Positions 1-6,607 of a stretch of 64,000 nucleotides of DNA are shown one piece after another; within the stretch, counting starts at the first letter, position 1; every line of letters begins with the position of its first letter. The translations under genes and the position numbers were made by a program. The notes under the pieces are model-generated. The model had not been told where the DNA came from. It worked only from the letters and a program-made list of their open reading frames with translations, and made no database searches. The stretch lies in assembly GCF_000026545.1 (NCBI RefSeq), contig NC_011601.1. The stretch is one strand, 5' to 3'. This stretch comes from Escherichia coli O127:H6 str. E2348/69 (lineage in GTDB: Bacteria > Pseudomonadota > Gammaproteobacteria > Enterobacterales > Enterobacteriaceae).

Positions 1-619
1 GACACCTATTCACAACAAGTTTATTGCTGCACTTGTTGTAGAGAGTATTTGTAAAAACATTTTATGTCGCTAAATAACATGACGATTTCATTATGCATGT
101 TATTTATAAACAGCGACTAAACAGAATATTATTGCGAACAAGGGAAGTGTCAGGAAAGGTCAAGAGGTACTAATAGTTTATATGGCTATAAACATTAGCT
201 ATGGTTAATGTTTGCCTGGTGAAACTAACACCAAATTGCTGTAACCCTCTTTGAATCATAAACTGAAGGATGATGCAGCACAGTTCCTCGCGGACTATCC
301 TGGCTACTACATGACCAAACGCGGATATCATCCTCAAGCAGTCAACTCTGGCAATCTTTTTACTCAGCTATGAGGACCTGATCGTCGACTTTGCCATCTG
401 CATGATGAATCTCCTCAGCAGCAGATGCAGTATTTACCGAAATGAATCCCATGAATAATGCAGTAATTAGTAGTGCTTTCATATCTGATGCCTGTTTTAA
501 ACGATATATTTGGAAGTTGACGAATATCGGAAGGAGCTTCCTCCTTCTTGATCTGTAAATATACAGTTCTAAGCTGTCATAAGACTGACTGTCATATGAC
601 AACGTTGTCAGATTTTTGA

Positions 620-910
<291 letters not shown>

Positions 911-1258
911 TGAATCTAGTTCATAAGATAAATCCGTAACACTCACTTGTTTTAACTTAATATTTTTAATAAAAAGATTAAGTTACTTCCAAATAGCTTC
1001 ATGAACTAGCTAAGAATGCGCTTCATCCAAGGCCTCCTGAAGGCGTTCGGGGATACAATTTAGGGAAGCCTCGAAATGTTGCTGCTCAGCAGCTTTTTCC
1101 ATCCAGTCCCGAAACTAGTTAGGGGTTACTCCATACATTGTTAAATGTCAAAATATTGATAAATGTTTTATAGATAACAGTAAGTTAGCCATATTTTTTC
1201 ATTGACCTTTCATTTGTGACGAAGCAAACTGACCTGAATAGTCGCATAGGGATGTCAT

Positions 1259-2359
1259 ATGATTCCTGAAATTGAACTTAGAGATATTCAGCCAAAGGGA
1301 AGCAGTGATGTCCCGTCGTCTTCGCACATTCAGACTGGATTACCGATTCCAAAAACAGTGCGGGTTCAGTTCTTTAGCCCTGACGAATGGGAGTCGTTTA
1401 CAGAGGAATGGGCAAGTTATCTCAAAAATGAATATGTTGCAGCCAGACGCTTTGGGGGTTCTGGTGATCTTGGGATAGATATTGCTGGTTTCTGTTCTGA
1501 CAAGGGATTCGAGGCGGTATGGGATAATTATCAATGCAAGCGCTATGGACATCCTCTTCGGCCTGGTGATATCTGGGTTGAAATTGGCAAGATTATTTAT
1601 TACTCATATCTTGGCAAATATACCCCTCCACGAAAGCATTTTTTTGTTTGCTCTCAGGGAATAGGAACCAGTCTTGAACAGTTGTTGAACAAGCCTACTG
1701 AGTTGAAAGAAAAATCGATTGAAAACTGGGATAATTACTGTCTCAAGGGTATCACTTCTACTGCTGAAATTCCGTTGACTGGTGCATTAAGAGCTTACCT
1801 CGACGCATTTGATTTCACTATTTTCTCATCAAAATCGATAGTTGAGCTTATCGAAATTCATGCCAGAACGGGTTTTCACTCGGTTCGCTTTGGCGGCGGG
1901 CTGCCGTATCGGCCTAATCCATCTTCTCCACCAACCATACCGACGGAAAATGAAAGCCGATACATTCGCCAGTTGCTTGATGCCTATGGAGACCATTTAG
2001 GCACAAATTTACCAGACGCTGCTTCGTTGGCGTCACACAATCAATTTCGTAGTGACTATCTTCGCCAGCGCGAACGTTTTTATCACGCAGAATCGCTAAA
2101 GAATTTTGCGCGAGATACTGTTCCTGCGGGGACATTTGATGCCTTACAGGATGAAATCTACCATGGCGTAATTGATGTCTGCGAAGATTATCACTTGAGT
2201 GGATTTGCGAGAATGAAAGAAACCATGAAGCACGCTACCACTATCGCTGTCACATCAAATCCGTTGGTCACTTCAATTAAAACACAAGATCGCCAAGGTA
2301 TATGCCATCAGTTGGCTAATGACGATCGCCTGATTTGGGTGCCAGATAATGAATCATAA
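1259..2359 (+). CDS. Mrr-like PD-(D/E)xK nuclease-domain protein; candidate effector (LmuA-like) of a Lamassu/ABC-3C-type defence operon
   Basis: 366-aa ORF; N-terminal motif RRFGGSGDLGIDIAG...WDNYQCKRY matches the Mrr-type restriction endonuclease catalytic signature (D..D...QxK); AGGGA 6 nt upstream of ATG; stop overlaps start of next ORF. Confidence 0.6.
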   Translation: MIPEIELRDIQPKGSSDVPSSSHIQTGLPIPKTVRVQFFSPDEWESFTEEWASYLKNEYVAARRFGGSGDLGIDIAGFCSDKGFEAVWDNYQCKRYGHPLRPGDIWVEIGKIIYYSYLGKYTPPRKHFFVCSQGIGTSLEQLLNKPTELKEKSIENWDNYCLKGITSTAEIPLTGALRAYLDAFDFTIFSSKSIVELIEIHARTGFHSVRFGGGLPYRPNPSSPPTIPTENESRYIRQLLDAYGDHLGTNLPDAASLASHNQFRSDYLRQRERFYHAESLKNFARDTVPAGTFDALQDEIYHGVIDVCEDYHLSGFARMKETMKHATTIAVTSNPLVTSIKTQDRQGICHQLANDDRLIWVPDNES

Positions 2360-2834
2360 AAAACATCCAGAGCCCTTTAATAGTCCTTTCGAAACCGGGA
2401 TACGTTCGCTTGCGATTCTGGTTGCAGCCTTCCCTGAGTCTTATGATTTGCAACGGCTAGTTGAAATGGATTATCTCGTTGTGCATTCCGGTGATGCTGA
2501 TGGTCCTGACAGTTTGCATGCCCCATTACCGATGCGTGCGGGCGAACTACTGGTCAGGCATGGTTTGATTGAAAAGGGATTGATGCTCATGATGAGCAGG
2601 GGGCTCGTCCAACGTGTTTCAGCCAGTGATGGGTTCAACTATCTTGCTGGGGAGCTCGCTGCACCTTTTATCTCTTCTCTTACGACTGAATATTCATGTC
2701 GACTAAAAGTTTGTGCTGAATGGGTAACTGGTGAATTTAAAGACCTGCCTACGCAGGAAATACGGAACATTACGCATCGCTTGTTTCAGCAGTGGTCGAG
2801 TCAGTTCCAGAGTATTCAGTCATCTGGAGGATGA
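2349..2834 (+). CDS. small protein, candidate middle component (LmuC-like) of the three-gene operon
   Basis: 161-aa ORF; ATG at 2349 overlaps the upstream stop (2357-2359) and its TGA (2832-2834) overlaps ATGATGATG of the next gene, implying translational coupling; no recognisable catalytic motif. Confidence 0.5.
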   Translation: MNHKKHPEPFNSPFETGIRSLAILVAAFPESYDLQRLVEMDYLVVHSGDADGPDSLHAPLPMRAGELLVRHGLIEKGLMLMMSRGLVQRVSASDGFNYLAGELAAPFISSLTTEYSCRLKVCAEWVTGEFKDLPTQEIRNITHRLFQQWSSQFQSIQSSGG

Positions 2835-4663
2835 TGATGAGCGATAATTATTTGCAGCTTAGAAAAATTTTGTTCCATGGCCAAACCAAAGAATCCGTTT
2901 TATCTTTTTCATCCGGTATTAATGTGATTTGTGGGGCTTCCGATACCGGCAAATCATTCCTGGCAGAAACTCTGGATTTTATGCTGGGTGGAACGGAGCT
3001 CAGGGAAATTACAGAATTAGCTGCTTATGCAGAAATAACTCTCGATTTTGTCACCAGTGATGGTCGAAGTTGGCGTCTTCAACGTGCAGTGACTGGCGGG
3101 AATTTCAAGTTAACTGATTTGGATGAGCCAGACTCGGAACCTATCGTGCTAAAACAGAAGTACGTTCGGGGTAAAACGGATAATATCTCCAGTTTTTTAC
3201 TTGAACAGATTGGCTTGCCGAATAAGGAGATTTTGAAAAGTAGTACCAAAGCGACGACTCAGGGACTGAGCTTCCGCAATCTGGCGAGACTTGCTCTGGT
3301 TCAGGAAGATGAAATTCAGCATAAAGGCTCTCCCTTTTGGAGTGGGCAGTTCACAACCAAAACCGCTGAACTGGCAACGGTCAAACTGCTGCTGACAGGG
3401 GGTGATGATTCTGCGGTCGTTGCAGTGAGTGGCGATGGTGTAAGCAATACGTCTCAGATTATGTTGATTGATGAGTTAATTGCGGAGTTATCCATTGAAA
3501 TTAAGGATATGGGAGAAGAGCGTGATGATCTGGCTTCCCAACTGACCCGCCTTGAACAATCTATTGAGAGTCAACGTGAATCGCTCACTGCCGCACAGCA
3601 GCAACTAGAGCAGTTATTACAACAAAGGGGACTGGCCTTTGATGAGCGAAACAAAATCCAGGGACGACTGGATGAGATATCCGAACTACTTGCCAGATTT
3701 ACACTTCTGAATGAGCATTATGTTATAGATATCAACCGTCTGAAATCCATTCAGGAGTGTGGCTTGCTCTTCATGCATATTGACGTGATTCCTTGCCCTC
3801 ATTGTGGAGCTAGTCCAGCTCACCAACACCTGGAACAAATATGTGATGGAGATGTAGATTCAATCATTACTTCAGCAACTGCCGAGATGCAAAAGACCGA
3901 ACGACTTTTGGCAGAGCTGAATTGTACAGTCAGAGATCTTGTCAGCGAAAAGCAACGCCTTGAGAAGCAATACATTGTCCATGAAGAGGATTATTTGCGT
4001 CTTGATAAAGCCATTCGGGAAACTATTGCTCCTGAAGTTGACAGTTTCAGGCACTCGTATGCTGAACTGATCGACGAACGGGCCAGTGTCCAGCAATCTA
4101 TTGATTTGTTCTCAAGATTGGACCGGCTGGAAAGCAGGAAAGTGGCATTACAAAGCGATACTCCGGTAAAAAAAGAAAAAAGTGCGGTGCAAAACGGCAT
4201 TCCAGAGTCTGTTGCCCATAGTCTGTCGTTAAAAATCTCCTCTATATTAAAAGACTGGCATTTCCCCGGAGCATGCCAGGTATTTTTTGACAAAGATACT
4301 TCGGATTTTGTAATTGATGGAAAACCTCGCGGTAGCCGGGGAAAGGGGCTACGAGCAATTACCCATGCGGCAGTCAGTGTCGGACTACTTGAGTTTTGCC
4401 AAGAAAATGGGCTATCGCATCCGGGATTCCTAGTTCTGGATTCCCCTCTACTGGCTTACTACAAACCAGAAGGTGAAGATGATGTAGCTTTGCAAGGTAC
4501 TGACTTGAAAGAGAAATTCTATGATTATCTTGTGAAGCACCATAATGAAGATAGTCAGATCCTTATTATAGAAAATCCGCATCCACCGCAAAGCATGAAT
4601 AAACAGATTACTATGACGGTATTCACTGGTAATCCTAGGGTTGGCCGTTTCGGATTGCTTTGA
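2831..4663 (+). CDS. SMC/Rad50-like ABC ATPase with central coiled-coil and CxxC hook (LmuB-like)
   Basis: N-terminal Walker A GASDTGKS (nt 2933-2956); long heptad-rich, Q/E/L-rich central region containing CPHC (nt 3794-3805); C-terminal hhhhD motif FLVLDSP (nt 4427-4447); GGAGG at 2826-2830; start chosen among ATG 2831/2834/2837 (track ORF begins 2792). Confidence 0.65.
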   Translation: MMMSDNYLQLRKILFHGQTKESVLSFSSGINVICGASDTGKSFLAETLDFMLGGTELREITELAAYAEITLDFVTSDGRSWRLQRAVTGGNFKLTDLDEPDSEPIVLKQKYVRGKTDNISSFLLEQIGLPNKEILKSSTKATTQGLSFRNLARLALVQEDEIQHKGSPFWSGQFTTKTAELATVKLLLTGGDDSAVVAVSGDGVSNTSQIMLIDELIAELSIEIKDMGEERDDLASQLTRLEQSIESQRESLTAAQQQLEQLLQQRGLAFDERNKIQGRLDEISELLARFTLLNEHYVIDINRLKSIQECGLLFMHIDVIPCPHCGASPAHQHLEQICDGDVDSIITSATAEMQKTERLLAELNCTVRDLVSEKQRLEKQYIVHEEDYLRLDKAIRETIAPEVDSFRHSYAELIDERASVQQSIDLFSRLDRLESRKVALQSDTPVKKEKSAVQNGIPESVAHSLSLKISSILKDWHFPGACQVFFDKDTSDFVIDGKPRGSRGKGLRAITHAAVSVGLLEFCQENGLSHPGFLVLDSPLLAYYKPEGEDDVALQGTDLKEKFYDYLVKHHNEDSQILIIENPHPPQSMNKQITMTVFTGNPRVGRFGLL

Positions 4664-5569: not shown

Positions 5570-6607
<1,038 letters not shown>

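Follow-up and report, generated by a model that had tools for sequence, protein, structure and literature searches.

A short signal-peptide-bearing reading frame of Escherichia coli E2348/69 as the probable 5' stub of a BhsA-like DUF1471 gene

Relationship of the short frame to the DUF1471 family

The DUF1471/YhcN/BhsA-McbA family comprises periplasmic proteins of about 90 residues, which are confined to Enterobacteriaceae and possess signal peptides of about 20 residues; the DUF1471 fold consists of a four-stranded sheet and helices, and for two members, SrfN and YahO, experiments have demonstrated that the signal peptide is cleaved between residues 21 and 22 (PMC4092069). Together with BhsA/YcfR, McbA and YhcN, these two proteins belong to a stress- and biofilm-associated group. 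Here we consider a stretch of 64,000 nucleotides (henceforth the window), whose positions 1-1300 match the chromosome of the enteropathogenic E. coli strain E2348/69 (O127:H6) with 100% identity. A first-pass annotation had proposed that a gene for a 40-residue secreted peptide resides on the minus strand at 360..482. The frame exists and reads exactly as described, with 40 codons from 482 to 360 followed by a stop (reverse-strand translation: MKALLITALFMGFISVNTASAAEEIHHADGKVDDQVLIAE). Nonetheless, we regard it as very probable that this frame is a pseudogene stub of a BhsA-like DUF1471 gene, whose signal peptide was inherited. It shares with the family the N-terminal 31 residues, including a signal peptide of 21 residues, but the alpha+beta domain of about 55 residues that defines DUF1471 is wholly missing.

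All three regions of a signal peptide are present in the 40-residue frame: an n-region (M-K), an h-region of 14 residues (ALLITALFMGFISV, mean Kyte-Doolittle value of 2.41) and a c-region (NTASA) with small residues at -3 and -1. Cleavage is predicted between residues 21 and 22 (after ASA and before AEE), which would leave a tail of 19 residues. The tail is acidic, as the first-pass annotation had stated for its mature peptide; its composition, however, is that of ten linker residues of the ancestral gene, AEEIHHADGK, followed by nine codons of junction DNA. The longest mechanical ORF at this site is 360..602 (-), which begins with TTG at 602 and encodes 80 aa; the start that had been preferred to it, Met at 482, coincides with the annotated starts of intact homologues. 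The sole Shine-Dalgarno-like element of the stub is a weak AGG located 8-10 nt 5' of the ATG; the corresponding element of the intact gene in strain W4 is AGAGG.

The evidence for common descent comes from both the protein and the DNA level. In a BLASTP comparison, codons 1-31 (window 482 to 390) align with residues 1-31 of the intact, 83-aa protein of strain W4 (MKALLITTLVMGFISVNAASAAQEINHADGKEKIGVVSASNAYTLDELSNTLSRKADEQGATSFKILSTTGNNRLHGVAEIYK) with 26 of 31 residues identical (84%, E 2e-17). The alignment ends at residue 31, and similarity to the intact W4 gene is lost straight after ...HADGK. In the intact protein, the Pfam domain PF07338 (YdgH/BhsA/McbA-like) occupies residues 32-83 (E 1.5e-18), i.e. 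almost exactly the part that is absent from the stub, and a Pfam search for this domain in the 40-aa and the 80-aa frames revealed no match even at E<=10. Scans of both frames against Pfam and NCBIfam assigned them to no family; the best matches (Tcp10_C with 12 bits and DUF5547 with 14.5 bits) were far below the cut-off. According to blastn, the intact loci L004, L007 and L008 are homologous to the window from position 389 on, across the spacer and as far as position 708 in the 3' end of the gene for an SDR-family oxidoreductase, while window 245-388 yielded no match to these loci. Thus, what had been taken for a complete gene of a secreted peptide corresponds to the first 31 codons of an 83-codon DUF1471 gene, from which the whole PF07338 domain has been deleted.

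A word-indexed protein search with the 40-aa peptide retrieved 13 E. coli variants of the stub and no full-length protein. The intact homologues were located by a "distant" DNA search, with window 389-708 being ~75-77% identical to them. They comprise WP_021571236.1 from strain 2017-19-1CC, WP_061092945.1 from W4 and WP_016243451.1 from ECONIH4, each of 83 aa, and they have the same start position and the same upstream SDR neighbour as the stub. Although these are the closest intact relatives found, their DNA identity over window 389-708 is only ~76-77%, and the copies in these three strains therefore stand for an allele or lineage of the cassette that has diverged rather than for the direct parent of the stub. 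Over the 31 shared codons, the stub differs from the intact alleles by 7-10 synonymous and 4-8 non-synonymous substitutions, which is the signature of a once-coding sequence. As regards membership in DUF1471, the domain itself is absent, while the ~20-residue signal peptide, cleavable around 21/22, is present and descent is indicated by both homology and synteny. The stub derives from a member of the family but cannot itself be a functional one, and it is best classed as a pseudogene of DUF1471 descent rather than as a family member or a new small-protein gene.

The feature is already known and annotated as a pseudogene; it is not a new gene for a secreted peptide. RefSeq/PGAP lists at 390..482 (-) the pseudogene H4J01_RS25675 (NZ_CP059840.2), described as "multiple stress resistance protein BhsA" with the C-terminus missing, and equivalent calls exist in strains A25 and JA0072 (equivalents AOY78_RS22630 and JS570_RS24245). 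The PGAP pseudogene ends at the homology breakpoint at 390, whereas the open frame of the first-pass annotation runs on to the stop at 360. The features of the region are collected in Table 1.

Table 1. Gene remnants and associated elements around the stub (window coordinates)
Feature	Coordinates	Strand	Evidence
5' remnant of DUF1471 gene, codons 1-31 (signal peptide of 21 residues and 10 mature residues)	390..482	-	PGAP, BLASTP, Pfam, blastn
9 junction codons (VDDQVLIAE) and TAA stop, foreign to the ancestral gene	360..389	-	similarity to W4 lost; no blastn match to intact loci; alpha/beta hydrolase match confined to 255-354
Ancestral SDR-DUF1471 spacer with weak AGG Shine-Dalgarno and palindrome TGTCATATGACA	483..607	-	~76-77% DNA identity to intact spacers
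3' end remnant of SDR-family oxidoreductase gene, stop codon at 608-610	608..708	-	window 389-708 aligns to L007:5094-4767 (SDR 3' end, spacer, DUF1471 5' end)
Fragment of LysR-family regulator gene, helix-turn-helix part only	710..823	+	PGAP pseudogene; PF00126 HTH_1, E 1.5e-8, profile 24-55 of 60; 81-83% to LysR gene of L007/L008
Fragment of alpha/beta hydrolase gene by the junction	255..354	+	intact gene present in 90 E. coli genomes, part of it matched at 83-85% DNA identity; PGAP "hypothetical protein" 257-355, partial at both ends

The proposed ancestral cluster and its decay across strains

In strain 2017-19-1CC the cluster is intact, with a LysR gene divergent from a row of genes for an SDR oxidoreductase, the DUF1471 protein and a RamA-like HTH protein, and it adjoins ydeT/ydeS/ydeR, i.e. 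the window's own locus. The chromosomal neighbourhood of the window is flanked by a fimbrial operon and, at the opposite end, by hipBA. An SDR gene lies upstream of the intact DUF1471 gene in all three strains, being frameshifted in W4 and split by IS3 in ECONIH4. The LysR regulator accompanies the intact DUF1471 gene in 2017-19-1CC and ECONIH4, and the downstream HTH gene accompanies it in 2017-19-1CC and W4. The SDR-DUF1471-HTH set of W4 (L004 1675-5008) is located inside an integrase-bearing island at tRNA-Sec, and the LysR/SDR/DUF1471 set of ECONIH4 (L008) is situated among IS elements. The SDR-DUF1471 pair thus occurs away from this locus as well, and we conclude that the cluster moves horizontally.

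The extent of loss varies among the strains examined. In CFT073 and JA0072 the SDR gene upstream of the stub is still complete. According to blastn, E2348/69 lacks the counterpart of CFT073 L003:3709-4620, which contains the greater part of the SDR gene, the divergent SDR/LysR promoter region and, from the start of the LysR gene, ~80 nt. In MNCRE44 the deletion is larger and leaves a stump of 14 codons (MKALLITALFMGFS followed by a stop), while in K-12 nothing matches the stub region. The strains can therefore be arranged in a series of progressively greater loss: CFT073/JA0072, E2348/69, MNCRE44 and K-12.

We propose the following scenario. An ancestral cluster, located between a ydeQRST-type fimbrial operon and hipBA, would have encoded a LysR regulator and, divergently, an SDR oxidoreductase, a periplasmic DUF1471 protein of 83 aa (BhsA/YhcN-like) and a small RamA-like HTH protein. 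The DUF1471 gene would then have lost everything from codon 32 on by a deletion that fused the remainder to unrelated DNA, the source of nine additional codons and a stop. Because its start codon, its weak ribosome-binding site and its Sec signal peptide of 21 residues survived, the stub resembles a complete gene for a small secreted peptide. In E2348/69 there would have been a second deletion, reaching from the SDR gene, most of which it took, across the SDR/LysR promoter region into the start of the LysR gene. Any product of the stub would consist of the signal peptide and an unstructured tail of 19 residues, devoid of the DUF1471 fold, and would most likely be degraded and functionless. The homology, the breakpoint, the loss of the domain and the differences between strains are observed, and from these we infer that the stub is neither expressed nor functional.

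A perfect 12-nt palindrome (TGTCATATGACA) is present just past the SDR stop codon (window ~588-603, minus strand). The intact locus of W4 keeps part of it, and in the ancestral cluster it may have been bound by a regulator.

Constraint on the frame, expression signals and competing interpretations

Of 5426 complete genomes, about 318 retain at least 80% of window 330-620, and matches to this region occur in roughly 900 E. coli genomes. E2348/69 and A25 possess an intact 40-codon frame; in CFT073 and JA0072 the frame is open as well, with substitutions. The first-pass annotation had itself named, as grounds for abandoning the gene, a frame disrupted in close relatives in which the DNA is conserved, and this is the situation we observe: the DNA of the stub region in close relatives is 95-98% identical, yet the frame carries damage of several kinds. 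All three differences among the remnant alleles (G12E, T18N and G30S) are non-synonymous and none is synonymous, which is a very small count. G12E, the state of CFT073 and of several database gene calls, puts a charged residue halfway along the hydrophobic core. Among gene calls from public assemblies, P0007, P0008 and P0012 have in-frame deletions of the hydrophobic core, P0009-P0011 and P0013 exhibit four differing downstream fusions after residues 25-31, and P0006, an upstream-extended partial call, has L at the position of the start Met, which would be compatible with possible loss of the start codon; at the extreme is the MNCRE44 stump described above. Across the strains that retain the DNA, the frame thus shows no sign of purifying selection.

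Signals for expression are scarce. A promoter scan by crude consensus match found no sigma-70-like site on the minus strand of 483-607, and its lone minus-strand match (354 to 327) lies downstream of the ORF. A single terminator-like hairpin was detected on the plus strand at 529-541; with a mean of 0.3 in shuffled sequence, one match is not much above expectation. The search of window 1-1300 against Rfam at E<=1 gave only a chance match to a eukaryotic scaRNA (19 bits versus a gathering score of 47) and no known sRNA. If the SDR and DUF1471 genes were co-transcribed, the divergent SDR/LysR promoter region would be a likely driver of both; this region is deleted in E2348/69. Dedicated transcription of the stub is probably absent.

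An alternative is that the truncated frame is a true small gene acquired by co-option. Its translation would begin at Met-482, and its product would pass through Sec and be cut after A-S-A to release a functional acidic peptide of 19 residues. The intact start codon with AGG 8-10 nt upstream, the well-formed signal peptide and the persistence of the open frame in several B2-type strains speak for it; chance alone can keep short open frames for a long time, and persistence does not rule out use. However, we consider co-option very unlikely in view of the Glu in the hydrophobic core, the core deletions, the L at the start-Met position in one partial call and the differing fusions in other assemblies, the reduction to 14 codons in MNCRE44, and the exclusively non-synonymous differences among the remnant alleles. 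Moreover, nine of the 19 "mature" residues derive from junction DNA, the frame matches no family, and the promoter region of the upstream operon is deleted in E2348/69. Even lower is the probability we assign to the orphaned signal peptide and its tail being still translated and exported in E2348/69, A25 and similar strains as a newborn micro-peptide; if so, it could serve as a periplasmic or secreted acidic, His-rich peptide or as a decoy substrate of signal peptidase, and it would present a case of a small gene born from a pseudogene.

The 80-aa ORF has in its favour that it is the longest mechanical frame at the site, but that it is a real gene seems extremely improbable, since the 40 codons that it adds upstream of Met-482 are spacer between the SDR and DUF1471 genes and begin right after the SDR stop codon. 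This spacer has indels of 8 nt and 1 nt compared to the intact W4 locus and is hence not a conserved frame; the intact homologues start at the Met equivalent to 482, and the only Pfam match, to DUF5547, is sub-threshold (14.5 bits versus a cut-off of 25). In addition, the signal peptide would be placed 40 residues inside the protein, and a signal peptide buried so deep would not function in Sec export. We give next to no credence to the view that an ORF whose N-terminus resembles a signal peptide has arisen here by chance in non-coding, AT-rich DNA. To be sure, frames of this type are common: a crude signal-peptide filter is passed by roughly four Met-started frames (~4.3) per mononucleotide-shuffled 64-kb window, compared to 28 in the real window, and the signal-peptide pattern by itself is not beyond chance. 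We count the signal peptide as real because intact DUF1471 proteins have homologous N-termini (E 2e-17), with which it aligns. Specific protein and DNA homology to real DUF1471 genes and synteny with the SDR and LysR genes argue against chance, and the BLASTP match to the intact DUF1471 protein together with the blastn homology over 389-708 refute it. The interpretation of the frame as a stub of a DUF1471 gene therefore remains the one we favour. A perfect-looking signal peptide followed by a short tail is exactly what the 5' remnant of a gene looks like, and small-protein scans should therefore compare their candidates with the N-termini of longer family members before new genes are proclaimed.

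The surrounding mosaic and the wider window

The first-pass annotation had placed the frame in otherwise non-coding, AT-rich DNA. The region is indeed AT-rich (GC content 0.34-0.43 in window 1-1350), but it is a mosaic of gene fragments rather than ancestrally non-coding sequence. The stub is one of several such fragments here, the stretch from the fimbrial operon to hipBA being in decay and prone to rearrangement, and it carries little biological weight. Window 797-901 corresponds to DNA that in CFT073 lies just after the ORF of acetylxylan esterase, with the last 3 nt overlapping the stop codon of that ORF. This piece, the alpha/beta hydrolase fragment, the SDR 3' end and the LysR helix-turn-helix fragment make up four further fragments within less than 700 nt, and they record nested deletions that differ among the strains examined.

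The gene fragments adjoin a three-gene defence system of the Lamassu type at window 1259-4663 (+), identified by PADLOC (LmuA 2e-133, LmuC 1.9e-54, LmuB 6.4e-176) and annotated by PGAP as "ABC-three component system". Strain A25 has window 1-1008 in common with E2348/69, but where E2348/69 has this system, A25 has another variant ("middle component 1"). This suggests that the stretch between the fimbrial operon and hipBA is a hotspot for defence islands. Further along, at window 5660-6061 (+), lies an ORF of 133 aa annotated as "reverse transcriptase domain", which matches positions 1-123 of the 308-position model of retron RT type I-A (E 5.6e-49). It is probably a truncated retron RT, as the match covers only this first part of the model. 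Fragments of an integrase and of hypothetical genes are located between this ORF and hipA.

A genuine contrast to the stub is provided by the same window at ~22,000-24,600 (L010 435-1639 reversed), where the annotated small-protein genes mgtS (31 codons) and mgtT (34 codons) are found, together with a fragment of YdeI.
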